Part shown: piece after piece, positions 1 through 64,000 of the stretch
Position numbering within the stretch: position 1 is the stretch's first letter
How the letters are laid out: each line of letters starts with the position of its first letter
IMG/VR virus record: IMGVR_UViG_3300045988_153208
Reading direction: 5' to 3' (one strand)
DNA from: a virus
Length of the DNA: 64,000 nt
Position numbers and translations under genes: made by a program
The notes under the pieces: model-generated
Databases searched by the model: none
What the model was told of the DNA's origin: nothing
What the model saw: the letters and a program-made list of their open reading frames with translations, nothing else

Positions 1-465
1 TATGCCTATGCTGAGAAGTATACTGAGAATGGTGAGGCTAAGGTCCGCTTGGTTCTACGTTCTCCTGATAATAGTGCTGAGACTGGATGCCGTTTCCGCT
101 ATATCGAGCCTGTAATTGAATTTACTTATGAGAATTTGGTAAATGCTCTAAATAAGGCTATTGATAAAGAAGCGGGAATGCATGATAATAAGTTTGTTAC
201 TGATGCTCGTGATGTAGTATCTATTGCAAAAACTTATGATTATGATGCTCTACGTGAAGAGTTCCAGGATTTGGTTGGTACTTTAATGGCTAAGAATCAG
301 GCATATTACACTCCCCGTGTTACTCAGATTGTTGATAAATATTTGGGTAAAGGTAAGAAAGTTAATGATGCGACAATTGATCAGGCTGAATTGATTGATT
401 TGATTGTAACTGAAATTAAAGAAGATTTGATGCCAACAATTGAAGCAAAAACCATTACTGAATAA
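1..465 (+). CDS. 3' part of a hypothetical protein, truncated by the window start
   Basis: The frame is open from nt 1 and stops at TAA 463-465. There is no in-frame TAG, and GC is higher than in the surrounding sequence. A hairpin terminator follows. Confidence 0.5.
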   Translation, partial: YAYAEKYTENGEAKVRLVLRSPDNSAETGCRFRYIEPVIEFTYENLVNALNKAIDKEAGMHDNKFVTDARDVVSIAKTYDYDALREEFQDLVGTLMAKNQAYYTPRVTQIVDKYLGKGKKVNDATIDQAELIDLIVTEIKEDLMPTIEAKTITE

Positions 466-475
466 TTAATATTGA

Positions 476-512
476 CCTGAGGCGAACTCAAATCCGCCTC
501 AGGTTGATTTTT
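476..512 (+). terminator. Rho-independent terminator
   Basis: Perfect 9-bp stem cctgaggcg/cgcctcagg with a 9-nt loop, followed by a T-rich run, directly after the TAA stop. Confidence 0.7.
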
Positions 513-532
513 ATCCATTTTTATGATATAAT
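504..532 (+). promoter_or_regulatory. Sigma70-like promoter with extended -10
   Basis: -35 TTGATT at 504-509, a 17-nt spacer, then TGaTATAAT at 524-532 (extended -10 of the TGnTATAAT type). Confidence 0.55.
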
Positions 533-562: not shown

Positions 563-1108
563 TTGAAAATAGCACATAAAGTAAAATGTTTTTATTGTGG
601 ATAGATTTTCGATAGAGATAAATTTCCATATGTTCAAGTTGGAGCTCGTCGTTATGCTCATCCTCAATGTGCTGGTGTCACTTCTGAAGAAGAAATTGTT
701 AAACCTCCAGAAGAGAATAAGGAAAAGGCTGAATTAGAACAATATATAATGAAATTACTTGGAGAAAATTATATTAATCCTCGTGTGCGAAAACAATTAA
801 ATCAATATGTAGAGGAATACAATTATACTTATTCAGGTATGTTAAAAGCCCTTATATATTTTTATGAAGTTAAAGGAAATTCTGTCGAAAAAGCAAATGG
901 TGGAGTTGGTATAATTCCTTGGATATATAAAGATGCTTATAATTATTACTATAACTTATGGATGATAAAACAAAGAAATGAAGATAAAAATATCTCATTA
1001 TATGTTCCACAAGTTCAAGAAATAACTATACCAATACCTCAACGGAAACCCTACAAGAAAAATTTATTTTCATTTTTAGACGAAGAGGAGGGTGTGAATG
1101 GCATCTAA
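563..1108 (+). CDS. Hypothetical Cys-rich (zinc-ribbon-like) protein upstream of the helicase. It is a possible replication initiation or loader protein.
   Basis: The frame is open from the stop at 560-562 to TAA 1106-1108 and carries one in-frame TAG at 602-604. It has a CxxC...HPQC motif. It precedes dnaB and overlaps the dnaB start. The start codon is uncertain (TTG at 563 or a later start). Confidence 0.4.
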
Positions 1109-2630
1109 ATATGTCGACCCAACTGCAATAATGCAAGTGATTGGGTGCGTTTATAATTCACCACAATTACTTGATTTTACTGATAAGTATTCAATAACCG
1201 AAGAAGATTTCCCAGACCCATTTCACAGAGTTGTATTTGGGGCTATTTATAAAATTCATGAATTAGGTGCTGAAAAAGTCACCTTAGAAAATATTAATGA
1301 TTTCTTAGCCTCTCGTCCAAAATATCAAGGTATATATAAAGCAAATAAAGGTGAAGAATGGCTTTTAAATATTACAGATACAGCAAAACCATTATCATTT
1401 GATTATTATTATAGTCGTTTAAAGAAAATGTCTCTATTAAGAGCATATGATAATTATGGTATAGATGTGTCATTTATTTATGACCCTGATAATATTTTAG
1501 ATGTCGAGAAAAAACAATTACAAGAAGATAATTTAGATAATTCATCATTAGAAAATATCGCAAAATTAGTTGATGATAGAATTGAAACGATTAAATATGA
1601 ATATGTAAATAATATAGAAGGTGTAGCAGTTCAAGCAGGTCATGGAATTTTTGATTTGCTCGATTCTCTAAAGGAACATCCAGAAATTGGTTCACCATTA
1701 TACGGACCACTCGTGAATACAGTGACACGTGGAGCCAGACTAAAGAAATTTTATTTGCGTTCAGCCCCTTCTGGTATTGGAAAAACTCGTTCAATGATTG
1801 CTGATGCTTGTAATCTTGGGTGTAATAAAATTTATGATGAAACATTTGGTTGGATTAAAAATGGTATTTGTGAACCAGTTTTATATATCACCACAGAGCA
1901 AGAAATTAATGAAATTCAAACTATGATGTTAGCATTTTTATCAAATGTTAATGAAGAGCATATTTTGAATACAAAATTATATGTTGGTGATGAAGAAGAG
2001 CGAGTATTAGAAGCTGGTAAAATTATTGCTTCTAGTCCTATTTATATTCGTGAATTACCTGATTTTTCTCTGATGGATGTTGAGAATGAAATTAAAAAAG
2101 GTATTCGCGACCATGAAGTAAAATATGTATTTCATGATTATATTCATACAAGTTTAAAAATTCTTGAAGAAATTACTCGTCGTAGTGGTGGTGTTAAATT
2201 ACGCGAAGATAATATCTTATTTATGTTATCAACTAAATTAAAAGATATTTGTAATCAATATGGCGTATTTATTATGTCTGCTACTTAGTTAAATGGTGCA
2301 TATCAAGATGCTGAAACACCAGACCAAAATCTATTACGAGGAGCAAAAGCTATCGCTGATAAAATTGACTATGGTTCAATTTTATTACCAGTAAAAGATG
2401 ATGATTTAGTAGCATTAAATGATATTTTGCAAACAAATATTTTTGAAATTCCAACAATAAAAATGTCAGTCTATAAAAATAGACGTGGAAGATATAAGGG
2501 TGTATATTTGTGGTGCAAAGCAGATTTAGGAACTTGTAGAATTAAACCTATGTTTTGTACTACTTATGGATATGAGTTAGTTCCAATAGATGATATAAAA
2601 ATTAATTTTGATGAAGAGAGCGCGTTTTGA
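1098..2630 (+). CDS. dnaB: Replicative DNA helicase, DnaB-like
   Basis: A DnaB N-terminal domain-like region is followed by the Walker A motif SAPSGIGKT. The gene continues in frame through TAG 2286-2288 to TGA 2628-2630. The TAG falls at the conserved Gln of the helicase 'SQLNR' motif (FIMSAT-TAG-LNG). Confidence 0.8.
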
Positions 2631-3401: not shown

Positions 3402-3566
3402 TGGAAAAAGCTGGTCAGATTGAGTATAAAATGTCTAAGCGTCAAGCTACAGAGCTGATTAAAAATTACAAGGGGCCTCGTAAGAATCCACAGGATATTT
3501 TGATTGAATATGTAAATACTAATTTAAATCTTCTGCGCAAATGCGTGAAAGTGATTGTTGATTAAT
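3402..3566 (+). CDS. Small hypothetical protein (54 aa)
   Basis: RBS GGAG precedes an ATG at 3402. The gene overlaps the primase start (TAATG). Confidence 0.4.
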
Positions 3567-4668
3567 GGTTGTATTCGACAAGTCAGAAATCCGGGAAAAA
3601 CTTACTACCGATAATATTTATGACTTGTTGTTAGAATGGGGAGGCGATCCTGAGTATAATGAAACTGGGATCGTCTCTTCAACTATTTGTCATAATATGC
3701 CTGGTGAAGGTAGTAAAAAACTCTATTATTATGAAAATACTGGATTGTTTAAATGTTATACCGGATGCGATGCTACATTTGATGTATTTGAATTATGCAC
3801 GAAAGTAATGCGTATTCAACATGAACGAGAATTTGATTTAAACTCAGCAGTTTTATGGGTAGCTCATCGTTTTGGTTTAGGTGGAACAATTCAAGAATTA
3901 GATGAAGCCAAAACTCTTGAAGATTGGAAAATTTTTAATGAATATAGTCGTATTCAAAGTATTGAGAAGAAAACTAATCAAATAATATTAAAAACTTATG
4001 ATGAAAAAATTTTAACAAGATTTAATTATAAAGTTCAATTAACACCTTGGTTAGATGAAGGTATCTCACAAGAAGCATTAAATGCTGCTAAAATTGGTTT
4101 TTATCCAGGAGGCGACCAAATAACAATTCCACATTATGATATTGATGGACGATTTATTGGTTTGCGCGGGCGATCATTATGTAAAGAAGAGTGTGAATTA
4201 TATGGAAAATATCGACCCATTCATTTAAATAATCAATGGTATAGCCATCCTCTTGGTATGAATTTATATAACTTAAATCTGAGCAAAAATGCTATAAAGA
4301 CATTTAAAAAAGCAATAGTATTTGAAGGAGAAAAATCTGTTTTAAAATATAAAACTTATTTTGGTCTTAATAATGATATATCTGTGGCCTGTTGCGGGAG
4401 TAATTTATCTAGCTATCAAGTTCAATTATTATTAGACTGTGGAGTTGAAGAAATTATTATTGCATTCGATAGACAGTTTAAAGAACTTGGTGATGATGAA
4501 TTTAAACATCTTAAATTAAATTTATTAAAAGCAAGAAGTAAATTTAAAAATTATGCTACAATATCATTTATGTTTGATAAAACAGGATTGCTTGGCTATA
4601 AGGATTCACCAATCGATGATGGTAAAGATATTTTCTTGAAACTATTTAAAGAAAGGATTATAATATAA
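3565..4668 (+). CDS. dnaG: DNA primase, DnaG-like (CHC2 zinc finger plus Toprim)
   Basis: Intact 367-aa ORF with no TAG. It has the zinc-binding motif CHNMPGEG...CYTGCDATFDVFELC and a Toprim-like IVFEGEKSVLK segment. Confidence 0.7.
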   Translation: MVVFDKSEIREKLTTDNIYDLLLEWGGDPEYNETGIVSSTICHNMPGEGSKKLYYYENTGLFKCYTGCDATFDVFELCTKVMRIQHEREFDLNSAVLWVAHRFGLGGTIQELDEAKTLEDWKIFNEYSRIQSIEKKTNQIILKTYDEKILTRFNYKVQLTPWLDEGISQEALNAAKIGFYPGGDQITIPHYDIDGRFIGLRGRSLCKEECELYGKYRPIHLNNQWYSHPLGMNLYNLNLSKNAIKTFKKAIVFEGEKSVLKYKTYFGLNNDISVACCGSNLSSYQVQLLLDCGVEEIIIAFDRQFKELGDDEFKHLKLNLLKARSKFKNYATISFMFDKTGLLGYKDSPIDDGKDIFLKLFKERIII

Positions 4669-5206: not shown

Positions 5207-6952
5207 ATGGAATACCGCCTAAGAGCACCCGAGTTCCCGATATATACAGCGGTAGAACAAGTGCTAGTAAATCGTGGAATACCCTACGATTAGATTAATC
5301 ATTATTTAAACACTACTGATAATGACATTTTAGACCCTCGGTTAATACCGCACTTGGATGAAGGCGCTAAAATGCTTATTAAACATATTTCACAAAATGA
5401 CAAAGTTCTGATATAGATAGATAGTGATTGTGATGGATATACTTCTGCCGCATTACTAATGAATTATCTATATTGTCTATTTCCCAGTTTTGTGAATAAT
5501 AACATTTCTTATCGTGTCCATATGGGAAAACAGCACGGCATCATTCCAGATACAATTCCGGAAGATGTTAAATTAGTAATCGCTCCAGATTCAAGTTCAA
5601 ATGATTATGAAGCCCATGAATATTTAAATTTGAGTGGAGTTGACGTGCTGGTAATAGACCACCATGAAGCTGATCACATTTCTGAGTATGCTTGTATAAT
5701 TAATAATTAGTTATGTGATTATCCCACTAAATCATTATCTGGTGTAGCAATGGTCTGGAAATTTTGTTGCTATATTGATATGTTATTAAAGACTGACCAT
5801 GCGTAGAAGTTTTTAGATTTAGTGGCTCTTGGATTGGTGGCTGACATGATGGATGTGCGAGATTTTGAAACAAGAAGATTAATAGATAAAGGACTTCAAC
5901 AAATCCGCAATCCTTACTTCAGAGGTGCGATTGATAAAGACCAATTTCATTTTACAAATGAGATTACACCTATTGGAGTAGCTTTTTATATTGCTCCATT
6001 AATTAACGCGACAACTCGCGTCGGAACGCAAGAAGAAAAGCTCATGCTATTTGAATCAATGCTTGATTTTCGGGGATACGAACTTGTCCCATCAACGAAA
6101 CGTGGATGTAAAGGTCAAGCAGAGACGAGAGTAGAACAAGCTTGTCGAAATTGTACCAATATTAAAAGTAGACAAACCAAAATTCGAGACAATAGCTTGG
6201 AAAGAATTGAATAGATAATCGTAAATCAAAATTTATTGAGTAATAAAATCTTAATCGTTCAATTAGATGATTTGATTACTGACCGCAACCTAACTGGATT
6301 AATAGCAAATCAATTAATGAGTGAATATCAAAGACCTGTTTTAATCTTAAATAAAATTGAAAATGAAGATGGTACAATAACTTGGGAAGGGTCTGGTAGA
6401 GGATACGACAAATCTCGATTGAAAGATTTTAGAGGATTTTTAGAAAATAATAAATACGTTATGTATGCTGAAGGTCATGCTAATGCATTTGGTATTGGCA
6501 TTAAAGATGAAGATATTAGCGCATTTATTGCATCTACAAATTCTGCTCTAGATGGTTTTGATTTCACCCCAATCTATAATGTAGATTTTATCTACAAATC
6601 AGATGAGCTGACTCCTGATGAAGTTATTGACATCGCAGGAATGAAAAGCTTATGGGGCCAAGGAGTAGAAGAAGCTGAAATTGCTGTAGAAGGTATTAAA
6701 GTCCACAAGGACAATATACGTATTCTATCGCCAGATAAAAATCCTACTCTAAAGATAATGTTGCCTAACGGCATCAATTTTATGAAGTTTAGGTCGTCTG
6801 AAGAGGAATATGATAAACTATATTCTGAATTAGGTTATGTGACAATTAATATCGTTGGTGAATGCGAACGAAATATTTGGAATAATAAAATTAGTCCTCA
6901 AGTTATGATTAAAGATTACGAAATTGTAGATAGGGCAAATTATTATTTTTAA
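5207..6952 (+). CDS. recJ: RecJ-like DHH-family single-strand DNA exonuclease
   Basis: RBS AAAGGAGGG precedes ATG 5207. A single frame runs through four TAG codons to TAA 6950-6952 and merges track ORFs 5459-5710, 5822-6214 and 6236-6952. It has DHH motif I (IDSDCDGYTSAALL), the VIDHHE motif, and a DHHA1-like YAEGHANAFG motif. Confidence 0.7.
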
Positions 6953-8132: not shown

Positions 8133-9329
8133 ATGATTTTAACAAATAAGCAAGAACAAGGATTAAAAATAGCAGTAGAACGATATAAAAATAAAGAACG
8201 ATATACAGTAATAGCAGGTTATGCTGGAAGTGGAAAATCGACTCTAATTAAATTTATTATCTCTGCTTTGGGAGTAAATCCAGAAGAAGAAGTTTGTTAT
8301 GTAGCATTTACTGGTAAAGCAGCTACAGTTCTCTAGACTAAAGGTTGCCCAAATGCAACTACTGCTCATTAGTTATTATATAAAGCGCGAATTACACCCA
8401 ATGGAACATATAAATTTTTTCCAAGACCAAGAGAAGAGATAGTACACTATAAAGTAATTGTAGTAGACGAAGTTTCAATGCTTCCTAAAGCTATGTGGGA
8501 ATTGCTCTTATCTCATGGTATCTATATCTTAGCTACTGGAGATCCCGGTCAATTACCACCGATAGTTGATGAAGATAATAATCATGTGCTTGATAATCCA
8601 CACATCTTCCTTGATGAAATTATGCGTCAAGCTCAAGATAGTGAAATTATTAGATTTTCAATGTGGATTCGTGATAACAAACCAATCTCTTCATATAAGG
8701 GTACTGAGGAACAAGTTTTAATTCGATTTAAATGGGATGAAATGCTTCCTTAGATGTATAATTGGGCAGACCAAATTATTTGCTCAACAAATGAAAAACG
8801 AAATGATATTAATCGTATAGTCCGAACTCAAAAAGGATATGACCCAGACCGGCCTTGTATTGGAGATAAATTAATTGGATTACATAACCAATGGGATTTT
8901 ATATCTTCTAATCATACATGGGCGTTAACTAATGGGACTATTGGAACATTAGAAGATTTTTATGTTGAAGACATACGATTCCCATATTGGATTTATAAAA
9001 ATCCTGTACCATTTATGTATGCTCAATTAAGACTTGATGATGATGATACATTTTGTGGAGTTCCTATTGATTATAATCAATTATTAACTGGCAAAAGAAC
9101 ATTTGAAGGAAAACAAATTTATCAAATTAAAAAGAATAAAAATTGTCCTGACCCTCCATTTGATTTTTCATATGCCTATGCTATTACTTGCTGGAAGGCT
9201 CAAGGTAGTGAATATAATAAAGTATTAGGATTTGAAGAAGCTCCACCCTATGATAGAGAAACTCATAAAAAATATTTATATACCTTAGCCACAAGAGCTA
9301 AAGAGAGGCTGGTATTAATTAGGAAATGA
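8133..9329 (+). CDS. SF1 DNA helicase, Dda/RecD-like
   Basis: Walker A AGYAGSGKST, Walker B VVDEVSM, and a GDPGQLPP motif. A single frame runs through three TAG codons (8334, 8370, 8751) to TGA 9327-9329 and merges three track ORFs. Confidence 0.7.
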
Positions 9330-9931: not shown

Positions 9932-9993
9932 TTTATAATAAATTATATAGTATAATATTATTATAAATAAAATAAATAAGAAAGAGGTGGATT

Positions 9994-12900
9994 ATGCGAC
10001 CATATTTTGGCGTACACAACCATACTCACTATTCAAATCTGCGTTTATTAGATTCTATTAATAGACCAGAAGAGTTGATTAAAACAGCAGAAAAATTAGG
10101 ATTAAGTGGTATAGCAATTACTGACCACGAATGTTTATCTGCTCATATGGAAGTTAATCAATTTGCAAAAGATTTTTTAAAAGAGCACCCTGATTTTACT
10201 ATTGCATTAGGCAATGAAATTTATTTAACTGATACAAGAGATTGTGGTCAAAAGTATTACCATTTTATTCTATTAGCAAAAGATGAAATTGGATATAAAG
10301 CATTGAAAGAATTGAGTTCAATTGCTTGGATTAATTCTTATACTGATAGAAAAATGGAACGTGTGCCAACATTAAAATCTGAATTAAAAAATGTAATGGC
10401 ACAATATAAAGGACATGTTATCGCAACAACAGCTTGCATTGGTGGTGAATTAGGTTCTAATTTATATCCAATGTATGAAGCTGAAGTAGTAGGTGATATG
10501 CAAACTAAAAGCATTTATTATAATAATGTTGTTAAATTCATTGAATTTTGTATAAATGTTTTTGGTAAAGATGATTTTTATTTAGAGTGCGCTCCATCTA
10601 CTATGAAAGATCAACTTGTAGTAAATCAAAAGATTTATCAAGTAGCAAAAGCATATGATTTAAAAATGGTAATTGGAACCGATGCTCATTATTTAACAAA
10701 GAAAGATAGACCAATTCATAAAGCTTATTTAAATTCTAAAGATGGCGAGCGTGAAGTTGATTCATTCTATGAGTTTGCTTATGTAATGGATAGTGATGAA
10801 GTAGAAGAATTAATGTTACCATATATGGATACTTGGGATAAAAATAAAACTCCTCAAGAGATTATGAATTGGATTTTTGACAATACATTAGAAATTCAAA
10901 AGAAAATAAAATTTTATTCTCTGGAACGTAAACAACAAATTCCAAGAGTAGAAGTAATTGATTATAAAAAAGGATTCATTCCAGCAGATTGGCTTGAGAA
11001 ATATCCTGTTATTTGTTCACTGATTAATAGTGATGATATTCAAGAACGATATTGGGTGAATGAATGTATTAAAGCACTACAAGAAAAACAATTATATGAG
11101 AATGAAACATATATATCTCGGCTTGAAACTGAAGCTAATGTAATTAAAAATATTGGCGAAAAGCTTGAAGATTGTTTGTTTGCTTATTTTAATACATTTA
11201 AACATTATATTGATTTGTTCTGGGAATGCGGGAGTATTGTTGGCCCCGGTCGAGGCTCAGCAACTGGTTTCTTATCTAATTATTTACTGGGAATTACTCA
11301 GCTAGATCCAATTCGTTGGGGATTACCATATTGGCGTTTCTTGAACTTAGAGCGCGCAGAATTGCCTGATATTGATATCGATCTGGCCCCAAGCAAACGC
11401 CCGGCAATTTTTAGTGCTATCCGTAAAGAACGGGGAACATTAGGTTTAATTCAAGTTGCAACGTTTGGAACTGAAGGAACAAAGCAAGCAATTTTAACTG
11501 CTTGTCGTGGTTATAGAAGTGATGATTATCCCAATGGTATTGATGTAGATGAAGCTCAATTTATGTCTTCATTAATCCCGCAGGAACGTGGATTTTTATG
11601 GCCGATGAAAGATGTAGTAAATGGTAATCCTGATAAAGATAGAAAGCCAGTTACCACATTTATCCAAAAGGTAAACCAGTATCCTGGTCTATTGGATATT
11701 ATTGTATATATTGAAGGAATTGTTAATAAACGTTCTTCTCATGCTTCTGGTGTTATTTTATATGGTGAAGACCCATTTGAAACTGCATCATTTATGAAAA
11801 CTCCCAGTGGTGATTTAATTACTTGTTGGGACTTACATAAAGCTGAAGCAGCCGGAGATACTAAATATGACTTCCTGGTAACAGAAGCATGTGATAAAAT
11901 TATTCAATGTTATAATTTATTAAAAGAGGATAATCAAATTCCTGATATTGGTCTACGTGATTTTTATAATAAATATCTTCATCCAGAAGTAATAGATACG
12001 TCTGATAAACGTATTTGGGAACACTTGGCCGCAGGAGATATTCTTGACGTATTCCAATTCTCTACTGGTGTAGGTTTAGCTATTGCTAAAAAATTGAAAC
12101 CAAAAGATCCTATGGAAATGACCGCCGCGAACGCTATGATGCGTCTAATGAGTGAAAAAGGTAAAGAAAGTCAGCAAGATAGATATTATCGAATCCAAAA
12201 AGCTGGTATTCAAGTTTTTGATAAAGAAATGAAAGATAATCATTTGCCAGAAGAAATGATTGAAAAAATGCACAAGCATTGTGATAGATATTATGGATGT
12301 TGTCCACTTCAAGAGCAAATGATGGAAATCCTTATGGATGTCGCTGGATTTACATTAGGCGAAGCAAATAGTGCGCGTAAAGTTGTTGCTAAAAAACAAA
12401 TGGCAAAAATTCCTCAATTAAAAGAGCAAGTATTTAGTAAATTTACTAATGAACATAATGCTGAATATTTTTGGGAAAATGCAATCGCTCCTCAATTAGG
12501 ATATGCGTTTAGTTTAAATCACTCTCTTCCTTATTCATTTGTCGCAATTCAAATGATTTATTTAGCAATTAATTTCAATCCTATTTATTGGAATTGTGCT
12601 TGTTTAATTGTAAACAGTGGAGCATTGGAAAATGAACCAGAAGAAATAACTGATGAAGATTATGATTATTCTGGTGAAGAATATTGTGGTGCTTCTCCAG
12701 AAGATATAATGGAGAACAAATCAAAAAATAAAAAAGTGGCTAGCACTGATTATGGTAAAATCGCAAAAGCTATTGGAGATATACGGTCAGCTGGTATTAA
12801 AGTAAGTTTGGCTGATATTAATAAGGCTAAATTTGGATTTGCGCCTGATGTTGAAAATAATCAAATTTTATTTGGTTTAAAAGGATTGTTGAATGTTGGC

Positions 12901-13947: not shown

Positions 13948-14543
13948 TGTATAATATATTAGCATTAATTGGTGAAGCGGGGAGTGGTAAGGATACCATT
14001 CTCCGTAAACTAATTGATGATACAAAACATTATTATAATGGTAAATTACCACTACATGAAATTATAAGTTATACTTCAAGACCTCCAAGAGAAAAAGAAG
14101 TGGATGGTATTAACTACCATTTTATCTCAGCAGAAAAATTTGCTGAAATGATTTTATAGAATCAAATGTTTGAAGCTACTGTTTTTAATGAATGGTGCTA
14201 TGGCACAGGAATTGAGTCAGTCAAAGAAGGCGCTATCAATGTAGGAGTATTTAATCCAGAAGGTGCAGAGATTTTATTACATGACAAACGAGTAAATTTA
14301 ATTATCGTTTATATTCATGCAGATGATAAAATTCGATTAATTAGATAGTTAAATCGAGAAGCTAACCCAGATATTGATGAAATTATTCGTCGATATAAAA
14401 CAGATAAACTCGATTTTGAAGATGCTGATGATTTATGTAATTGGTTATATACAAATAATACTCCCGCGGAATTAGAATATATATATAAAGATTTAGCATT
14501 ATTCCTGTCTCGGTGGCCGGAGCATCTGGACACAACTTATTAA
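13947..14543 (+). CDS. Deoxynucleoside monophosphate kinase (P-loop kinase)
   Basis: P-loop GEAGSGKDT. The frame continues through TAG 14157 and TAG 14346 to TAA 14541-14543. Its ATG overlaps the polymerase TAA. Confidence 0.55.
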
Positions 14544-51300: not shown

Positions 51301-54300
51301 ATTTAAAATTTCATTAATAATATTGCGATCCTGCCAATTAATTATTCTCTCTAAACGAGATTGATGATCATTTAAATCTTCATAAGGAATATTATTTGAT
51401 TCTGATAAACCATTTAATAAAGTATTATAACTGCGAGTTAAAGTTAAATATTTCTAAAAATTATTATCAGCTTCTGCTATTAATTCATAATTACGATATA
51501 AAGCTCTTAAAAATTCTGATTGCTATATATAATTATCTTTCGCGCGTCTTGTTTCACTATCATTTACTTCAGTATAATAATCTAAAATCTCTAACTAAAA
51601 TGTTGCTTCCGCGATTAATCCTGTGCCAATTTTAATTATATCAGGAGATTTTAAATTAGAAAAATATCTATTATCATCATACTCTAACTCTACAGAATTA
51701 TTAAAACGAATATAAAAATCTTTAATCTAATCTTGCTATACAATTGATTTAGCAATATTATTTTCATCTACAGTCCAATCAGTATGATAAAATTCAGGGA
51801 CTGGATTATAGTCTTCTTTATTCAACCAACGAATAGCTGTTGATAAATAATCTTTTTCATGAATTAATTCATTATTATTTTTTATAGTTTTATAGAATGT
51901 AGCATTTTTTAATAAATCTTCTAAAGATTTTATCTAAGCGTCATAAAAATCATTAATAGCTTTATGATCAAACATAATAGCAGTTTGTAATTTTTTTTCT
52001 CTTAAATCATTTAATGCTTTAATTTGATTATTAATATAATCTTGATATTTATCTGTAGCCCCTTTAGGAATAATATAAACATCCTTAACTAATTTATATT
52101 TTCCATCTTTTTCAACATACAACTCTAATTCATCATTTAAATATGTCTTTTTATTTTTAATTAAAACATAATATAATCCAACTTCTTCGTCATATTGAAT
52201 GTCATGTAATTTTTCATAACGATATTTTTCATTGATATAAAATGAAGTGTCAAAATCGTCAATCACTGATTTCCAATAACAGTCATAATATTGACCGGTC
52301 TTTACTCCAAAAATATTAGTACGCTATGTTGGCATCCAAGAATCAAATTGAGGGAAATACTCGTACATCTAAAATACACAAAATTCATCATTTACATTAA
52401 AATATTCTTTTACTTTTGGAGTTAATTCATCTATTGGATAGGGCTATCCAAAAGGAGAAACAGAATATAATAAATACTGACTACCAAAATTTTCTTCATA
52501 ATCATATTTAGAATAACTACCATCTGCTTGAGGTAGACACACATGCGTTGCTTTCCCATCACTAATAGCCCAAGGCACTCCAGATGGATTAGCCGCAGTT
52601 ATTTTTGCCCATCCTTCAGGAGTTACATATTCATAAGGGACCGCATAAATAGGTATTAATTCACGTACTTTTATATGTAATTGTTCTAAATTTAAAACTT
52701 TTAATTTGTCTCTGGTGTAATTATGGAATTGAGTATTAATATAAGACATAATGTTGCCAGGCTCAAATCCTTTGGCAGCTAAAGTATCATAAATTTTTTC
52801 AAATGCAGAATTTACATCTAATTTATTTAATACAATTCTCTCATTTAAAGAACTCAAAGCATTTCTAAATTTATTAATATCTGACTCAGTTAAAGACTAA
52901 TCTTTCTATTTAGTAACTAAAGTATCTAATTCAGTTAATACTGGATTAACTCCCACAAACTAATGGCTTAAAATCGTCTTTAATTTTACTTCAGTAATTG
53001 CATCAAAATTTCCGTATCGTACTCCTTGATATTGGCACTCTAAAATACCTACTGGATGAGTGTATTCATCATTAGGTATTCTAATACGACTTATTTTTCG
53101 GCTTGAATTATTATAAGTATATGAGCCAGTAATTCCAATTAAAATTTCATCTTCTGTCTTTTCTGATATATCTCCGTAAGTTAAGAAAATACTAGATCCA
53201 GGCAATAAATCTTGAACAGAAAATTGACTAATATTATTAGATTCAAAATCTATAATAATATCCATGCCAGGCTCATATTCATTTAAATAATAACTGCGCC
53301 ATAATGAAACATATTTACTAACAATATCAGATTTTATAAATCCGTATTTTAATAAATTTTCATAAGTTAAATCCGCTATTTCAACACATTGTCCGGTAAA
53401 AGAATGAAGCATGCGCCCTAGTGTATCTACTGGAGACATAGAAACATTCATAATACGAATGATAAAATTCCCTTCTGGCCCAGACCGGAATAATTTAGGC
53501 TATCCATTATTTAACCAATCTAAGACTTCCATTTTAAAATTGCGCTCTTTATGAATATTATTTTCAATTAAATCACAAGGATTTTCTAATATTTTTTCCA
53601 TGCGATTAAAAAATTCTGTACTGTTTTTAATATCAGCATGGTCAGTACAAGTTCTAATATAGTCTTGAATTTCTCTATCATAAAATAAAATTTCATCATC
53701 CATTTGGTAAGAAATTAATCCACTAATAGGAAATTCTTTATAAGCAACTTTTCCATTTCTGAAAATAAAGGGAAATTTATTGCCAATTGTATTTGTTTTT
53801 TGTTCGAGTATTGTAGTTTTAAATGAAGATACTTTAGGATTGAATTTTACTTTTAAAACTCTATCTCCATCATATAAAAAGATATCTTCAAAATCAACTG
53901 AAACAGGTTCACTTTCAATGCGAGAAGAATAAATACCAAACAAATTATATTGAATTATACCATAAATATATTTAACACCTTGTTTAACGGTATAATCATT
54001 ATAATCTATTAATGATGGTTTCATATTTTCAAGTTTAAATCGTTTTAATTCTAACCAAGAACGATATTCATCTTCTTCGCTGGCCCTCACTAAAATGTAT
54101 TGACCAAAATAAGTATCTTCTTGTTTATCTACTTGGTATTCAATATTAGAATCATATCCTAAAATATGTAAATATTCTTTAGCTAATTCAGTAGATAAAC
54201 CAGCTGTAGTAATAATATTTTGACATAAGTTAATTAAACTCTAATCTGTAACAATCTGGTCTAACTCTGTTTCATCAACATTTATAGAATCCTATAAATA

Positions 54301-55638
54301 ATTTAAATAAGAATTTACTCTATTCTATAAAATAATATTTAAATTTTTATATCCTTCAAATGAAGTAGCAATATATACTGTAGTATTCCATAAAAATTTA
54401 CTAAATAAATTATAATAATTTATTTCTTCTTTTTCTTTACCAATATTTTCTATAACAGAACCTAAATATTCTCCTAAATATAAATCAAATTCTTTTGATT
54501 CCATAATTAAAGACTCTAAAATACCAGTAGAAATACCACACATATCATTTAATAATGAAACATTATCTCGTAAATATATTCTATACTTTTCTAAAATATT
54601 GACAACAAATCCTGACTCCTAAATTCGATCAACCCATTCTTTAATTTGCGGGTTATCTGAACTATTTGTTCCTTGATAGAATCGTTTTAATTTTGTCATT
54701 AAATTTTTAGAATAATTATAATAAGTATTAATACGAGTCATTTCCTTAATAACATTTTCTTGACGAACTACTCGTTCAATACCATGAAAATTAACATTAA
54801 TACATCCACTATTTGGATGAGGTTCTGTTGTGATTGAAATACTTTTACTAGGGGCTAATAAAGTTTCTGCTGTTACTCTATACATTGGGCTTGATGCCAC
54901 ATATCCATTTAAAGTTGTAACAGTATAAACTAATTTATAAACTTCACTAGTTTTAATGAAACTACTTAAAACGACTGAATCAGTAGATATTCCATATTCA
55001 ATATCATTAGAATTATTATGTAATAATTCACCAGTAGTATAATATAATTCCCCTTCTTCTGTATAAAATGAAAAATTATAAGAATATACTTTTTCACTCT
55101 AATCAAAATCAGAAGATAATTCATACAAACCGAATAAATTATTATTAAATAAATTAATACTATCAATTGAATATCCTTTAACTGAAATTTTAGGCTCCTG
55201 AATACATTTAATAATACCAATAGTAGAATAGTATCCTGTTAACTTTTTAATAACATCAACTGTAATAGTTTCTTTCGTGTCAGGGTCTTCTTTTGTTTCA
55301 GTCTATGTATATTGTGAAATATAAGCTAATTGTACTTTGTAATACTAACCTTCATTTAATAAAGCTCCCTAAGAAGGAGGTATAGTAAATGTAACAGTAG
55401 AATTAGCAGTATTAAAATCCATTGATTCAATTGGATTAAATAAATAAGTATTTGTTGAAGCAGTTTTTAATCGCAAAACAAATCCAACAAATTCTTTATC
55501 ATTAACTGCGGCACTCGCAGTAAAAGGAATTGTAATCTAAATATCCTTTAATACTTTCGTGTCGCCTGTTTCAATATAACTCTTACAAAAAGCAGGTAAA
55601 GTACCTGCTATTACAGGAGGATATAATCTTTCAGGCAT
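48370..55638 (-). CDS. Giant tail-associated or baseplate hub-like protein (about 2422 aa), Tal-like by position
   Basis: RBS AAAGGAGAATG precedes ATG 55636-38. Track ORFs 54619-54900, 54325-54543, 53500-54090, 52960-53451, 52444-52857, 51934-52266, 50473-50679, 49327-49557 and 48640-48939 are all in frame. The regions 54901-55638 and 48370-48640 were scanned completely and 51121-51934 almost completely; only TAG interruptions were found. The first TAA/TGA is TGA 48370-72. Confidence 0.55.
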
Positions 55639-55664
55639 AGTCATTCTCCTTTACCACATAATTA

Positions 55665-58565
55665 TTATTTATTTTCTAATGCTTGGATACGTTTTACTAA
55701 ATTTGGAATCGTTGTTTGCTATAATGTAGTGAAACTTGTTTCCAAAGTTTTAACGCGTGATTCTAATGCAGCACATCTATCAATTAAAGTTTTAATAGCA
55801 GAATTTGAAGATAGATTGCATTGGACAGGGACTCCATTTAAAAAATATACTGGATTTTCAGAACTTCCAACATTTAATAAAGCTTCATGCTCAGCATCCA
55901 CCAAATTCTAAGCATTCTAAGCTGAAGTCGCAGTTTTTATCCAAGCTTCTCCCTAATCATTTATTTTAAATATATTCTTTTTATCATCAAAAGCGTATAA
56001 ACCATATTCTTCTAAATTATTATTATTTTTAAATGTACCCATTAGTACACCTTTAGTCTAATTACTATTTAATTGTCCTACTGTAGTAGAAATTAATTGT
56101 AAAGTTTCGTCATTAAAATCAATAACTGCCCCTTGTAAATCATTCCACATTGCAATAGGATAATTATTTTTAATCACTACAATAGGCTATATCCATACTA
56201 TTTTGTCTGTTTTATTCTATGCCTATACATAGAGACAAGTTGAATTATTATCTTGAGAGGAAAATACAGTAGGCGGAATAATTATATTATTTTCAAATTT
56301 CCACTATGTTAAAATTTTGTTCTCATCATTTTTAATATTATTCTGCAAGCTCCAATTTAAATTTTCAGATACAGTTTCAAACCCATCCATTTCAGTTGTA
56401 TATTTAAAAATTTGATAATTAGTTTTTTCATATACCGGTTTTTTACCAGTAATATCATAAGTTATTATAGAGCATCCATCAGCACAAACATATTCTGGAT
56501 TAAATGTAGTAGGAATACTAATATATCCCTCTAAATTATTATTATTATAAGTTCCTTTTACTTTAACGACTAATTTTGATAAAAGATTAATATCAGATTC
56601 TGTTAATGCTTCATGAATTTTAATAATATTATCCACTAATGAAATCTTATCAGAATTTAAAGAATTATAATACCATTCATAAGTTAATTCAATATCAGAA
56701 CGTCCTTGCCAAGTATAATCATATAAATTAGCAACTATTCGATACTCCTTATCTTGAGAAATAGGACAAATAACTTTACAATCTTTATACTAATCTTTAA
56801 TTTTTTCTTGTAATGATAATTGAAGCACACAATTAGCCCCAGAAGAGCCGCTATTACCAAATAATAATTCAATTGAACTGGTGTATATCTAATTATTAAT
56901 TTCAATTTCACATTTAATTGTATTATTTCTAAAAAGTGGATTATATAAAGAGTTAATTCTAAAAGGTATATAATATATTTTAGTTGTAGGATTTAAATAG
57001 TCATACATAGGAGCAGTATTTTTATCAGTATTTAATATATGCTCAAACTCATACTCATCATGCTTATTTATCTTTCCATTTTCCACTGGAATAATCATTG
57101 TTTTTTTAGAAGGTAGCATATATCGTAATCGAACACCGTTTGTCAATGTTGTAGTCTTACTAGTATCTTTGCTATTAAATTCTACCGCAATATAATGGAT
57201 TTTTTCTCCATCAGAACGAGCTAATAATTGGTTATCTTGTCCATATATATAAAATGTATTATTGTTATTATTCGTAAATAAATTTAAACCAGCTAATAAA
57301 CCAATATCTGGATTATATAATGTATTTGTATAAGAACATGACTAAGAATATCCTAAAACTTCTCTTGTTCCTATTTTACCTTTAAAATAAATCCTATATG
57401 ATTGAGTAAAAATCTAATCTCCTAAACGAAGAGAGGTAGAAATTGTATTACCCGCAAGAATAGGAATCTCATCATAGCTGCCATCTGCTCTTACACCTAA
57501 GCGCCACCAACCTTGACCAAATACCGAACTGTTTTCAGTTACATCTTTATCATAAGAATATAACCATATTTCTGCCCCAGTAAATGTAGCCAAAGTCCCC
57601 GAAGTCATATCTATAACTCTAAACCCCATTGCAACCTTACGCTTTTCTTCATCTTGAGAGGGAGTGAACTAATATCTATTGCTACCTCTTGGATATAAAT
57701 AAACGCCAATATTACTATCAGTTGTAATATCTGAAAAATTACTTTTATAATATCCTAAATATAAATTTATATTTTTAAAAACAATTGAAAAAGAATCTGA
57801 ACTATCAATTTTATTATTATCACTATCGTAAAAATTGCCATTTTCCCATAATTCAATTTGGATATCATTAATAATTAAATTAGTAACATCTATATCAAAA
57901 TATTGAGAAGTATAACCTCCTGTTTTATATGCACTTAAAAATAACATATCTTTATTAGAGGATATTGTTGTGATCTGTCGAGTAAATGTTTTTAATTCTT
58001 TTGTGGTCTAATCTTTTCCACTTAATATAATACGGATACCATAAGTACCTTTATTTAAAGTTTTTGTACCATTATATAAATCAGCCATTAAATTATAAGA
58101 AATACGTAAAGTTGTATATCCTACTAATTCATTATTATTTATATAACTTTGAGGGCCCATAATAGTTTTACTAGATTCTCGGCCTTCAGAACTAGGAATT
58201 AACACAATTTCTTTATTTTGATTAAAAAGCTAATTGGCTGCATAAAAAGTTTTAGAATCATCTTTACCAATTACTTCATAATCACTAATTACGCGTCCAG
58301 TAATTAATTTTTTACCAGAAAAATTACCTTGTGGAATTAATACATAAACTTCTTCATTAAGAGCATAAGATTTATCTTTTTCATTAACAAAAACTGTTAA
58401 TTTAGCTCCTTTATAATTTACAATATATTTCTATGCCCCCTCAGAACTTTCAGGGACACTTTCTATTATTCCAACTATTGTCTAATCAAAAGGTAAATTC
58501 TATAATCGAGCAGATACAATTGTGTCTACTGATCGGAATATTTTTTCATTTAATTCATTAGACAT
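55665..58565 (-). CDS. Large tail protein immediately after the tape measure (about 966 aa), Dit-like by position
   Basis: RBS AAAAGGAGAG precedes ATG 58563-65. Track ORFs 58008-58205, 57669-57947, 57414-57629, 56889-57146, 56304-56636 and 55719-55904 are all in one frame joined by TAGs. The gene ends at TAA 55665-67. Confidence 0.5.
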
Positions 58566-58645
58566 AATTCGCTCTCCTTTTTCTCATATTCTAATAAATT
58601 TTGAGAAAAAATCTTATTTTATTATTTATATTTGACCAATAAAAA

Positions 58646-58673
58646 AATGGCGAGGTAATTAAACCTCGCCATT
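58646..58673 (-). terminator. Intrinsic terminator or attenuator between the tape measure and downstream tail genes
   Basis: Stem aatggcgaggt/acctcgccatt with loop aatta, followed on the minus strand by a T7 run, immediately after the TMP TAA. Confidence 0.6.
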
Positions 58674-58677
58674 TAAA

Positions 58678-61600
58678 TTAAACAGTCTTTCGACTTGCAT
58701 ATTGACTTGCTTCATTCTCCATCATTTCAAATGCTTCCATAATTTCATTACTATCAGTCACATTCGGGAAATCAGCATTAATAGAAACTTGCTGCATAAA
58801 TTCTTGTGCAATTCTATCAACCCCAAGAGAAGAAGGAATAAGATTAGATAAATAACTCACAATAGTCTAAACATTTAGCCCTATATTTTGTAATATAGTA
58901 GAAATATCTAAACTATCCATTAAAGCAGTATCAATGTTTAATTCATTATTACTCATCCAATCTTCAATTTGTTTATTCATATCTAATTGATCTAACATAT
59001 CTAAATAAGAGAATTGAGAAATATAATCTGGCACTTCAACTGTTTTATTAAAACTCTCAGAATTGTGCTAAGTACTAATTATATTATTTGCTGTTGCAGT
59101 TGAACGAGAATCAATGGCATTTTCATATTTACCATAATCAATACTATTCATTCCAGATAAAGCCGCCATCATTTCATTCATAGTTTTTACTAAAGCTTCA
59201 TTCCGCTTAATCGCACTATCAATTTTAAAAACATAAATAGATTCCCAATCACTCGCTGCTTTAATAACACCATTAAATGATTCTGTGGCATTTTTAACAA
59301 TTTTTTCCATATCTGCTACAGCTTTATCTGATTCACCAGTAATTTTAATCGACCATCCAGAAGCTGCATCAGCAAAACTTCCTTCAATACCTGCTGTACT
59401 ATTAATTTCTTTAATTTTATTTAAATAATCATCAAGTAATTTATTAGAATCAGCAACATAATTATCATGGCTTTTCCAAAATGCGTTAAACATTTCATCT
59501 AATGTAGAATATCCTGTTTTTAATGCCAAAGTAGTCTGATCAAAACTATCAACTAATGCGCCAGAACTATCTTTATAATATGCTACAAATTTTTCATTAG
59601 CATCTTTACTATTTTTAAATACTTCTTCATATTGCTAATGAATCTATTGCATACGTTCATCATAATATTTTTCTAAATCAGCAGCCTATTTCTCGTATTC
59701 AGCTTGAGAAATTTCTCCTTGAGTAAATGATAGCTTTATCGCTGTTAACTTTTCTTGATAGTCAGATTGTAATTGAAGAATATTATTTTCTAATGTTTTT
59801 AAATATTCTTCATTAGCTTTTTGATAAGCATTTAATTTATCTTCATATTCTTGTTCAGCTTCAGCTATTTTATCTTCATTAGCACTATATACATATCCCC
59901 AATTACCATTATTATCACGGGTTAAACGAACAGTTTCATTAGAATTTTGAACATCTTCCAATTTCTATCTTGCTAACTCTAATTCATATTTAGATTGTAA
60001 AATCTTTAAATCATATTCACTAATTTTAGAACCATCTTTTAATTTTTTATTTAACTCATCTTGTAATTTATTTAATGCTTGTTTATGAGGAATAATATTA
60101 GTATCATCAATAGAACCTTCAATCTGACGTCTTAATTTATTTAATTCATAAGTTTTATCAGCATCACTTAAATACTAATCATTTAATTCATTGGCCCTAG
60201 TAATAGCATCTTGCAAAGCTTCAATAGAACCATAAATTGGAGATATACCGTCTTCAAATTCTTTGACAATATTATCCATTTCTTCTTCAAAGATATCGCG
60301 TGCTCTTTCTAAAGCTTCTTGCCAAGTATCTAAGAAATTTTCTTCAGCACTATGGACTTGCTCATCGATTTCTTTTAAACTATCACTCCATTGTTTAATC
60401 CCAATTGAATCTCCATTGGCAACAGCTTTATCATATTGCTCTTGAGCATTAGCACGCATTTGTTTTAATGTCTCTACTTGCTATTTAGCTCCGGCAAGAT
60501 TATTAATACTATTGTTCATTAATGAACGATTTAAATTACGCAATACTAGTTTTGATTGCTCATTTAATTGAGCCCCTAATAATGAAGTAATATCTTTAAC
60601 ACCTTCAAGAATATTTTGATAATGTTCAAATAAATCAATTTGGTCTTGAACATCCTCACTAAATTGATTAAAACTATCAAGGACTTTTTCTTGAATGGTC
60701 GCTCTCATTTCAAGTAATTCTTGATTAGCTTCTAAAATACTAGAACGCCATTCTCGAATTTGATCAATTTCATCTTCAGTGAAATTCTTAGCTTTTAAAT
60801 CATCAACTGTTAATTTGTCAAGCTCTTCAATAGAATTAATACCATGATTATTCAATAATTCCAGCAAACCATCAGAATAAGTTTTAGTTTTTTCTAAGGC
60901 ATTTTCTGCTTTTTCACCAATTAAAGCAATAGCCTCAGCCGCAGAATAAGCATCATCTTCAATTTTACTTAATAAATAATCAAGATATTCCAATTCATCA
61001 TCTTTAACAGCAATTTTAATTTCAATTTTATACTAAGTCTTTTCAAAAATTACATCAGCTAATTCAGTTTGTAAATCATATAATTTTTCCAATTCATCTT
61101 GGCGCAGATTATTAGTTTCTTCATACTATTCTAAAGCTTCAATAAAATCATCATAAGCTTCTTCAGCTGCATTATCAGCATCTTCATTTTTACCAATAGA
61201 TGAATTGTATTTATCAATCTGGCGCTTCATAATTTCATCATAATTAGTAATAACACCAGTTTCATCAAATTCAGCACCATAAGATGCAATTAAAGCTTTA
61301 TCTTCATCCCAATATTTATTAATTTCATCAAGATATTGATTCTATAAATCAATCATTTCATCATATTTCTCAATTTCTTGATCCATTAATTCTAATTTAG
61401 AAGTACCAAATGCTCGCTCTTTAGCTTTTGCTAAATGCTCCATTACTTCTTCTAAATCTTCAATTTTTTGCTTAATTACATGATAACGCTCAATTTCATC
61501 TTTATATTCTTTTGGAGGAGGAGGAGTATATGAACTTCCACCACCACCATTTCCACCTCCGCCATTATTGTTAGTGGCAGTGGGATTAGTAGTTAAATCA

Positions 61601-64000
61601 GTTGTTTTCCCACCATACTCTTTACCCGACCAATCAAGAGTTTTAACTGTTGGCACATTAACCATAGTCGTAGTATCAATAGGAACAACAGATGGAGGAT
61701 CTAAATGATGTCCATGTTCATCAATATTACTAGTATAAACAACTGCTTCTTCGTGTGAAGTAACAGGAGTTGGTTCACTTTCAATTTCTGCATCAAATCC
61801 CATACTAGCAACAAAAGCTTGAGCTTGTTCTGCAGTAAAACCAAAGGCTGAAATCAATGTATTTAAAGAAGCAATTGCTTCAGTTGTATCAAATTTTGGA
61901 TCAAGCTATAATCCATTCGCAGCCTCTTGTATCTAAGTAAAACAAGTATTAATTTCTAACTAAACGCTACTTAAAGAATCTCCAAAAGCTGCTTTTAAAT
62001 CATCTCTACCACTATTAGCTATATTTTGTAAAACTTGATTTACCTATTCCCCAGTTGTATAAAATGAACGCTAAGTTGCAATATTTAATTCCGCTAATGC
62101 TTTTTGGTTACCTTTTGCTACATCGGGCATTAATTTAGCAACTTTACGAGCATATCTTTTATCTTCTTTGTATAATTTTTCAAATGTATCTTTAGATACT
62201 CCAGCTAAATCTGATAAAGCATCAGAATTCTATGCAACAAATTCATCAAAAGCTGCTTCATTTTCTGCATTATATTTTTTAGTAAGACTGGTAGAGTCAT
62301 TCATCCAATCTGAAAATGCTTTTACTTTATCATTACATTTATCCCAAGAACCAGCTAATTCATCAACTAGTTCTTGTCCATGAGTGCCTAATGAGCCCAT
62401 TTCATCTCGTAATTCATTAATCGCTCCAGAATCACCTTCAACAGCCTGTTGTAATTTTCCAAAATTCTCTGTTAAATTATTAGCATCTCCAGCCCAAGCC
62501 TTAAAATCATCTTCAGACATACCGAATATATCAGCGAATGATTCAGAATTACTCGTCAAAAATTCTTGTAATTTTCCAATTTCAGAGGGTAAAGCACTAC
62601 CCTATCCCATATTTTCTAAAGCAGAAGCTTGTTCCTAAATTTTATCTTCATCAAAATTCTATTCATCCCAAGAAGGCTTTAATCGGCTAGCAGCATCAAA
62701 AGCTTTTTGGCTATAAATTTGCTCATCAAAATAATTATCTTGCTAACTCAATCCCCATTGACGAGACTACTCTGCCGCGAAATTCTTCAATATAGTATCA
62801 TAATCAAAAGTAACTTCAGAATTTTCAACAGTTCCGCCATTTTCATCAGTCAATTTTACTGGTATTGTTGTATTACCGCTAGTAAAATCTTGTAACCAAT
62901 TATCTCCTAATTCACTTACTGAATATCCTTGCTATGATAATAGATTTAAAATTTCAGATTCAGTTAATTCATTACCACTATTACTACCACGCGATGCAAT
63001 TATTTTATTTTCATAATCTATAACATCTTGACTAATTAATTCTCCAATACCATTTCGATATTTTTCATCATATCCTGATAAATCTAGTCCTCGTGAAAGT
63101 AATTCATTTAAAACATCATTCTAATAAGAATCAGCTAATCTACTTGTTTCAGCAGTCAATTTTTCTAATGCTTCTCTAGTTTCGTGATTTGAAGTAATTA
63201 ATTTAGCTGTATTTTCATCTAAACCTGCTTTATTTATTAAGTCTTCTTTACTAAAATCAAAACTAGAATCTTTCATAGCAGCTTTAACTACTTTATTTAT
63301 TTCTGATGTTGTTAATGTGTCAGTCGCATTAACAGTATGATAACGATATTCATTAGGTCTAAACTGATATTTTTCTCGCTTTGTTCCTACAACTATGTTT
63401 TCATTTTTCTTTGAAATTTCTCTAGTTTTTGCTTCCAGCTATAACTATTCATCTCTATTGTTCTAAGAATTAACAGCTGTTTGAGCTTTATTCTATTTAT
63501 CAAGAGCCTGCTATTTAATCTTATTCCAACCAGATTCAGTTAAATGCTAAATATTATTAACATCATAATACCAGTCTTCACCTTTTTTAAGTTGAGAATC
63601 AGCATCTGCCATTTTATTATAATTATCAATTAAATCTTGAACTTCATTATTTACATCATATAAAGCTTCTCGCCATTCAGTAGTGCCATATTTTAAATCT
63701 TTAAAAGCATCATATTTACTTGATAAACCATCTAGAGATGAAGTTACTTTCTATACTTCAGAATTAACATTATCTAAATTACTTTGTAGTATTTGTAAAT
63801 CTTCATTAGATTGTTTAAGTTCAGTATTAAAAGATTGAGAACGTTTAACTAATGTATAAATAGCAAATCCAACAGCCGCAATTATTGCAGCAATTAATAT
63901 AAATTTAGCAATTAACGGTAATAAACTTACCTGAACCCCTTTTAAAGCGATATTTAATTCTTGAGTCGCTGCAGTTAATCCTTTAGTTGCTAAAGTATTA
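58678..64000 (-). CDS. Tail tape measure protein, C-terminal about 1770 aa (the 5' end lies beyond the window)
   Basis: Track ORFs 62230-62559, 61342-61857, 60481-60993, 60175-60459, 59686-59961, 59068-59529 and 58678-58860 are all in frame. The gaps 59962-60174 and 60460-60480 were checked and contain TAG only. The sequence is highly alpha-helical, coiled-coil and Glu/Lys/Ala-rich with a Gly-rich GGGGNGGGG stretch. It ends at TAA 58678-80. Confidence 0.7.

Follow-up and report, generated by a model that had tools for sequence, protein, structure and literature searches.

In-frame TAG codons, very probably read as glutamine, in a large siphovirus-like phage of the human gut

The DNA analysed here is a stretch of 64,000 nucleotides from the IMG/VR record IMGVR_UViG_3300045988_153208 (hereafter the window, meaning this stretch at its full length), which has a guanine-plus-cytosine (GC) content of 29.8% and belongs to the AT-rich genome, of about 166-200 kb, of a tailed phage. 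Its genes are arranged in two modules, one for replication and nucleotide metabolism on the plus strand (1-22.5 kb) and one for the virion on the minus strand (from 22.5 kb to the window end), and TAG is used in this phage as a conserved in-frame sense codon. In fact, when TAA and TGA are taken as the sole stops, 36 main open reading frames (ORFs) emerge, closely packed along the window and comprising 20,405 codons with 202 in-frame TAGs; by construction they hold no internal TAA or TGA, and they end at TAA in 27 cases and at TGA in 9. Relative to the standard code, the total of residues in ORFs of at least 100 amino acids rises from 14,094 to 22,388, the longest ORF grows from 1,323 to 2,729 amino acids, and the fraction of the window lying in ORFs of at least 150 codons increases from 0.55 to 0.93. 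As controls, reading TGA as sense leaves the longest ORF unchanged at 1,323 amino acids and the fraction at 0.57, and reading TAA as sense produces many extra short ORFs with a maximum of 1,344 amino acids. The original prediction for this DNA had held that frames are broken only at TAG and terminate only at TAA or TGA, and the re-predicted ORFs bear this out, with 202 TAGs against no TAA or TGA in the 36 of them.

On the plus strand, where functions were assigned by Pfam, a DnaB-like helicase (1098..2630; DnaB_C and DnaB) carries a single TAG (2286-2288) on the conserved glutamine (Gln, Q) of an ALSQLSR-type motif, and a TAG-free primase-like protein of 368 amino acids (3562..4668) shows a sub-threshold Toprim match of 20.7 bits against a cut-off of 23.1. 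The RecJ-like DHH exonuclease (5207..6952; DHH and RecJ_OB) is read through TAGs at 5291, 5414, 5708, 5804 and 6212, so that the readthrough previously claimed for it holds while the count of four has to be raised to five. The Dda/RecD-like superfamily 1 (SF1) helicase (8133..9329; AAA_30 and UvrD_C_2) has TAGs at 8334, 8370 and 8751 and its TGA stop at 9327, and all of these positions, like that of the DnaB TAG, had been quoted correctly as in frame. Further along the strand lie a TAG-free DnaE-type DNA polymerase III alpha subunit of 1,323 amino acids (9976..13947), whose 45 Gln codons are all CAA or CAG; a guanylate-kinase-like nucleotide kinase (13944..14543; Guanylate_kin) with TAGs at 14157 and 14346; the TAG-free anaerobic ribonucleotide reductase NrdD of 756 amino acids (14616..16886); and the NrdG activase (16883..17377), in which TAG 16982 directly follows the CxxxCxxC cluster. 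A dUTPase, likewise TAG-free, also belongs to this module. In the middle of the replication module, a Phage_lysozyme2 domain is found in a protein that is either secreted or anchored in the membrane (6973-7836, plus strand) and that is TAG-free past its likely start codon. Moreover, ORFs resembling homing endonucleases occur in the replication region, namely a zinc-ribbon-repeat ORF in the window (2676-3389, plus strand; 5 TAGs in 237 amino acids) and GIY-YIG-type ORFs in the related locus L093 (1494-2198 and 7511-8485), and their TAG density is high for this region. A comparable recoded intron endonuclease within an early gene was described by Borges et al. (10.1101/2021.08.26.457843).

The minus-strand module opens with a tail-fibre-like protein (22531..25683), whose readthrough had been foreseen correctly, while the figure of at least nine TAGs given for it comes down to eight, including a TAG-TAG doublet (25057-25059 and 25054-25056 in plus-strand coordinates). 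It is followed on the same strand by a tail-module ORF of 2,729 codons (30553..38742; PHROG 14959) with 14 TAGs, and by a run of five giant ORFs with one short ORF among them (41578..63999), of 1,208, 131, 944, 2,426, 972 and at least 1,773 codons in order, which together contain 132 TAGs. The last of them runs off the window, and its counterpart in the related locus L127 has 2,790 amino acids and 61 TAGs. For the giant ORFs, Pfam and PHROG give no function, the sole weak match being to a tail protein in the 944-amino-acid ORF.

Frames of 2,000-2,700 codons free of TAA and TGA at 30% GC cannot be the product of chance, because about 6% of random codons at the base composition of the window are estimated to be TAA or TGA. 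It could be argued that the code is standard and that the TAG-interrupted genes are pseudogenes, assembly errors or functional fragments, and public gene calls do break such genes at TAG, as in the case of a 396-amino-acid DnaB fragment from a Logan contig. However, just one of the three stop codons interrupts the frames, homologue alignments of less than 90% identity span 193 of the 202 TAGs with no loss of similarity downstream of them, and identical TAG sites are found again in independent assemblies from many samples, with TAG kept in 458 of 510 aligned cells among relatives of at least 90% identity. Such an explanation would also mean the loss of essential genes, including DnaB, the portal and TerL, the last with 11 TAGs. 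With 202 in-frame TAGs, 193 of them aligned across, an origin by chance or by gene decay is therefore excluded, and this is the explanation to which we assign practically no probability at all.

The codon standing opposite each window TAG was then read in about 90 related IMG/VR loci, which were collected around DnaE, a fragment of a giant ORF and the 2,729-amino-acid protein, and whose ORFs were translated with TAG as X and aligned to the window proteins. In high-scoring segment pairs of at least 90% identity, the cells opposite window TAGs are TAG in 458 cases, Q in 37, E in 7 and K in 4; at 60-90% identity they are Q in 130, TAG in 126, K in 42 and D in 36; and below 60% they are Q in 212, K in 136 and TAG in 125. 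When this profile is compared with each amino acid's own substitution profile, Gln comes first whichever identity band is taken, leading every other residue by at least 170 log-likelihood units. The reverse test points the same way, as relatives carry TAG in 2.7-3.7% of cells at window Gln positions against at most 1% at those of any other residue. Among relatives of at least 90% identity, the replacements of TAG are CAG (26), CAA (11) and GAG (7), that is, mostly a single-step synonymous exchange.

Individual sites can be added to these profiles. At 13 TAG sites the non-TAG partner is invariant in at least five relatives, and it is Gln at nine of them, with D, K, N and E at one each; the nine include DnaB amino acid 397, RecJ amino acid 174 (TAG 5708) and kinase amino acid 135, the kinase site (TAG 14346) being Gln in all 36 relatives without TAG there. 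The DnaB TAG, which had been placed on the invariant Gln of the helicase motif, does align with the Gln of ALSQLSR in Thermus aquaticus DnaB (PDB 2q6t), and relatives have CAG (25), CAA (3) or TAG (3) at this site. For NrdG, the observation that TAG 16982 stands right after the cysteine cluster is correct, but the site is not diagnostic, since PflA has His at the aligned position and His, Gln or Phe is found there in relatives; it was dropped as evidence for Gln. Judging from the best fit in three identity bands, the invariant columns and the exchange between TAG and CAG, we consider it very probable that TAG encodes Gln as in genetic code 15, with only TAA and TGA terminating, just as the original prediction proposed.

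A suppressor transfer RNA (tRNA) was searched for with ARAGORN and with Rfam in gathering and E-value modes, and neither a tRNA nor any other RNA family was found in the window, as had been noted before; nor was any tRNA found in the family loci L001-L323 (from IMG/VR, ENA and GTDB), which represent about 127 kb of a 166-kb relative. As a control, ARAGORN detected a test tRNA as well as every annotated tRNA of the code-15 phage phAss-1, three tRNA(CUA) among them. Two candidate places were rejected: the position equivalent to that of the phAss-1 suppressor, upstream of NrdD, where the gap between kinase and NrdD in the window measures only 72 nucleotides, and a GC-rich block upstream of TerL, considered as a tRNA island or host junction, which holds small protein genes and no tRNA even at relaxed thresholds. 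Because the tRNA array of phAss-1 lies upstream of its metabolic and replication genes, the search was extended further left, and an array was reached via homologues of a cREC_REC protein, an earlier query with a vault-like fragment having given short contigs only. This array, in the locus L339 (ENA ERZ1026856 NODE_56, 80 kb), consists in order of tRNA(CUA) and the tRNAs for Tyr, Thr, Ser, Gly, Lys and Cys. The contig has 91-92% nucleotide identity, over 10.7-20 kb, to the loci L145 and L268, and other loci on the contigs of these two are 98-99% identical to the window. By synteny, the suppressor would thus be placed to the left of window position 1, at a distance of about 40 kb, in keeping with the earlier suggestion that a tRNA(CUA) is encoded outside the window.

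The tRNA(CUA), called by ARAGORN at L339:418-491, reaches 52.5 bits with the Rfam tRNA model, for which the gathering score is 29. Its D and T loops are canonical, the former containing GG and the latter reading TTCGAAT; bases 1 and 72 form a U1.U72 mismatch, base 73 is G73, and the CCA end is encoded. Its acceptor stem closely resembles that of the phAss-1 tRNA-Gln(CUG), with which it has a CCGG core, U72 and G73 in common. In bacteria, a weak 1:72 pair and G73 count among the features of Gln identity recognised by GlnRS and GatCAB.

The surroundings of the array deserve a description of their own. Just downstream of it lies a protein of about 830 amino acids with the Pfam domain MVP_shoulder and a faint Vault_3 match (L335:5460-10309; L339:5481-10312; L331:3396-8228), which adjoins a DUF2828/DUF7788 protein of about 508 amino acids and the cREC_REC protein; this is a pair resembling the major vault protein, carried by a phage. 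Between the DUF2828 and the MVP-like genes, L332 has three tandem radical-SAM genes of 18-25% GC (3202-7093); three copies are seen in L332 only, other relatives having a single one or none. Between the tRNA array and the replication module there is a cluster of an RNA ligase, a KTI12/AAA_33 kinase-like protein and metallophosphatases (L334:8725-13215; L268:6866-10756), which resembles a tRNA-repair set.

With the tRNA at hand, the possibility that TAG encodes another amino acid can be weighed, be it Leu (code 16), Tyr, Trp, Glu, Lys, Ser or pyrrolysine. It would draw on the frequency of K, E, N and D as partners of TAG at variable sites, on the acceptor stem of the tRNA(CUA), which is not that of a canonical bacterial tRNA-Gln, and on the ARAGORN label, the program calling any CUA anticodon 'Pyl'. 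However, K, E, D and N are themselves the usual substitutes of Gln, and the lead of Gln over all residues in each identity band, its nine of 13 invariant sites and the exchange of TAG mostly with CAG in close relatives all speak against it. As for pyrrolysine, tRNA-Pyl differs in architecture from tRNAs with an ordinary D-loop and T-loop, and the tRNA(CUA) has GG in the former and TTCGAAT in the latter; moreover, TAG aligns with Q and not with K, and no Pyl genes were seen among the annotated ORFs (not every ORF being scanned). Assignment to an amino acid other than Gln is thus very improbable in our view, if the foremost among the alternatives considered here.

Assignment to Gln also has to be seen in the context of the family. 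Megablast with 50 kb of the window returned no match among GenBank phages, and the lineage is not represented in the searched GenBank phage collection. Contigs of 98-99% identity exist in IMG/VR and in ENA human-gut assemblies, with lengths of 129-201 kb. The TerL of the family has 52% identity to that of Enterococcus phages VRE9_4, H1 and EF1, 50% to that of Geobacillus virus E3 and 44% to that of phAss-1, and DnaE is 39% identical to its counterparts in SPbeta-like and Enterococcus phages; by best-hit similarity only, TerL and the DnaE-type replication place the family in the wider EF1/Geobacillus E3/phAss-1 siphovirus group. Among the fetched loci, 74 were called TAG-recoded, 42 standard and 3 TGA-recoded. 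The relative IMGVR_UViG_3300021387_000299 (177,819 bp; loci L058 and L241) is clearly TGA-recoded in its virion module, with TGA opposite Trp in 18 of 36 cells and a long-ORF coverage that goes from 0.45 under the standard code to 0.97 with TGA as sense. Other relatives, the L066-L091 group, keep to the standard code, so that codes 11, 15 and 4 are all present in the family. Its GTDB matches are phage contigs binned in metagenome-assembled genomes (MAGs) of mixed taxonomy, and because these bins are mostly of Bacillota, a Bacillota host is likely, not proven.

The use of TAG varies widely between genes. Of the Gln codons in the window, TAG makes up 202 (26.5%), CAA 500 and CAG 60, and TAG per 100 codons amounts to 0.47, 0.62 and 1.77 in the successive thirds of the window. 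DnaE, NrdD, the primase and the dUTPase have no TAG at all; DnaB, RecJ and the Dda-like helicase have 1-5; and the ORFs at 41.5-64 kb, the most TAG-rich in the window, have 1.6-2.3 per 100 codons (1.77 together), where TAG provides 29-56% of the Gln codons per ORF and 39% together. In relatives, TerL contains 11 TAGs and a portal-like ORF 9, and two conserved proteins of the virion module are TAG-free, namely phrog_4088 (capsid module, with no function assigned) and phrog_2729 (virion structural protein). Hence, of the original claim that recoding extends across the whole element, the sense reading of TAG stands and the uniformity does not, as several large genes do without TAG.

A block of small genes (40-230 amino acids) is found outside the window, upstream of and divergent from TerL, with 43-52% GC in a genome of 27-31% GC. 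It extends over at least 5.5 kb in all close relatives (L190:1-5500) and over at least 17 kb in L328 (3000-20372), a more distant relative with 75% identity in a marker protein, and it gave neither a tRNA nor an Rfam match. In L328 all 40 called genes, most of which lie in this block, end at TAA or TGA and contain no internal TAG. Two gene ends can be mentioned here: in the block, a 125-amino-acid ORF on the minus strand (L190:1829-2221) closes with TAG, four codons and a stop, an arrangement kept in three relatives, and in the window the 1,208-amino-acid ORF ends with TAG, one codon and TAA (41578-41586). A TAG shortly before TAA or TGA could be a standard-code stop with a backup stop for code 15.

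This unevenness bears on two further explanations. The first is that TAG remains a stop with occasional leaky, regulatory readthrough, and the avoidance of TAG by highly expressed virion genes and presumed early genes does fit an inefficient process. However, single ORFs of the window contain 19-41 TAGs, and the counterpart in L127 contains 61; at 90% readthrough per site, simple arithmetic leaves about 1% of full-length product at 41 sites. Moreover, TAG is more than 3-fold as frequent as CAG overall and provides 39-56% of the Gln codons in these TAG-rich ORFs. Mere leakiness accordingly has a very slight probability, surpassing only that of the pseudogenes.

The second is that code 15 is already the code of the host and the phage simply follows it, like the code-25 phages of Absconditabacteria; in its favour, the window contains neither a tRNA nor a release-factor gene. 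Against this, a close relative has a tRNA(CUA) gene of its own, TAG is used very unevenly with several large genes avoiding it, the GC-rich block of L328 is without TAG either in frame or as a stop, and the same family has members with the standard code and with TGA recoded to Trp. We know of no bacterium in which TAG encodes Gln. Where a host shares the code, about 90% of phage genes are recoded (Borges et al., 10.1101/2021.08.26.457843), and the recoded share in the window is far below this value. A host with code 15 seems to us very unlikely, somewhat behind the assignment to another residue.

Reassignment to Gln by a phage of this kind is nevertheless confronted with several points that weigh against it. 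Most TAGs stand at variable positions, with Q as the plurality residue at 47 of 182 sites only, and many single TAG sites are uninformative for this reason. The suppressor was seen in a relative of about 91% identity and not in the phage's own sequence, which is represented by the window only, and its acceptor stem has C2-G71, C3-G70 and U1.U72 where bacterial tRNA-Gln has G2-C71 and G3-C70. No gene for a release factor or an aminoacyl-tRNA synthetase was found in the annotated loci, nor any PCRF or RF-1 Pfam match in these loci or in the scanned window ORFs, with about 30-57 kb of the closest full-length contigs outside view. The host is hinted at only by the MAG bins and by relatives in culture, which grow on Enterococcus, Geobacillus and Bacillus. 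Besides, there is no clean split between replication and late genes, as TAGs also occur in DnaB, RecJ and the Dda-like helicase, and so the code boundary is not simply one of replication versus structure. The Gln identity of the tRNA(CUA), deduced from features of its sequence, is inferred, as are the timing of the genes and the host. Taking all this together, we hold with high confidence that the window comes from a large siphovirus-like phage, presumably of gut Bacillota, that uses code 15.

The course of infection might then be imagined as follows. The host would read the standard code, and in early infection only TAG-free genes could be made, in the window DnaE, NrdD and the primase; the GC-rich block of small, presumed early genes, TAG-free in the more distant relative, would likewise be readable early. 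The phage tRNA(CUA) would then be transcribed and charged with Gln by host enzymes, in Bacillota likely through a non-discriminating GluRS and GatCAB, and the charged tRNA would outcompete release factor 1 (RF1), whereupon the TAG-containing genes would become translatable. Those rich in TAG, such as TerL, the portal and the giant virion proteins, would depend most on this switch, and TAG would be kept out of the most abundant virion proteins, as one would expect were suppression to work less efficiently than ordinary decoding. The observed use of TAG fits the published model, in which genes required before the suppressor builds up can be decoded under either code and those rich in TAG have to await it.

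It is also conceivable, though we regard it as rather doubtful, that TAG density reflects a graded dependence of each gene on the suppressor, with three gene classes and charging by GluRS and GatCAB, rather than a simple switch from early to late. The first class, code-neutral and with zero TAG, may comprise the presumed early genes and the most abundant virion proteins, and may include the GC-rich block of the distant relative, which has no TAG even as a stop. The replication genes with few TAGs may form the second class, and the giant virion genes with 19-61 TAGs the third, whose output may be throttled by the supply of suppressor. In a Bacillota host lacking GlnRS, the tRNA(CUA) with its U1.U72 mismatch may need transamidation by GluRS and GatCAB.

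Recoding of this kind is already well described, and the window phage does not change the concept. Its practical weight lies in annotation: standard-code gene callers shatter the genome of this phage, as the public 396-residue piece of DnaB illustrates, so the annotation and protein clustering of an abundant human-gut family will be wrong unless table 15 is used. Moreover, as the family offers members with the standard code, with TAG as Gln and with TGA as Trp, together with a located suppressor tRNA and a clear gradient of TAG between gene classes, it is a usable system for testing whether late gene expression is timed or throttled by recoding.

Among known systems, TAG as Gln has been described in crAss-like phages, Lak phages and several 'gemstone' clades (10.1101/2021.08.26.457843), code 15 has been verified by metaproteomics in crAss-like phages (Peters et al. 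2022, PMC9523058), and it is known for phAss-1 and its relatives (Babkin et al. 2023, PMC10607447); the NCBI taxonomy in fact holds a 'Caudoviricetes code 15 clade'. At the sequence level, every property expected of a code-15 phage appears to be present in the window phage. The closest likeness may be drawn with phAss-1 (OQ749652, of the proposed Phassvirus group), also a code-15 tailed phage of the human gut, whose TerL, portal and tail genes contain TAG, as do some of its replication genes, and which has a tRNA array with tRNA-Sup(CUA), NrdD and NrdG, a tail protein of about 3,000 amino acids and a tail fibre of about 1,070 amino acids. Both phages fall in the TerL neighbourhood of Enterococcus phage EF1. 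Unlike the window family, however, phAss-1 has a genome of 136 kb rather than 166-201 kb, a suppressor that adjoins NrdD and three tRNA(CUA) instead of the one seen so far, while the long GC-rich block of small genes is a feature of the window family. The two described relatives of phAss-1 have 82.7% and 86.4% nucleotide identity to it (PMC10607447), and membership of the window phage in the Phassvirus genus was rejected, given the lack of a megablast match, the TerL identity of 44% and the different tRNA placement.

With the clades of Borges et al. (crAss-like, Lak, Jade, Sapphire, Agate, Garnet and others) the window family has in common low GC, the alignment of TAG with Gln, a suppressor tRNA, recoding that falls mainly on structural genes and varies among replication genes, and the mixing of codes 11, 15 and 4 within clades. 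The genomes of Jade, Sapphire and Agate, of about 150-210 kb, are compatible with it in size, size and the mixed-code pattern being the features compared. It differs in that some Lak and Agate phages have a gene for release factor 2 (RF2) and none was seen in the window family, nor was a 'code change module' next to a lysis cassette. In the crAss-like phages the same reassignment has peptide-level proof (PMC9523058), while the window phage is known from its sequence. Those phages belong to another phage order and have Bacteroidota hosts. Finally, the supE-type tRNA-Gln(CUA) of E. coli, a weak chromosomal suppressor mutation in a cell with the standard code, inserts Gln at UAG against RF1. It resembles the tRNA(CUA) of the window family in joining a tRNA-Gln-like body to a CUA anticodon and in competing with RF1 for Gln insertion at UAG, whereas in the window family the tRNA is borne by the phage and must support dozens of TAGs per gene.

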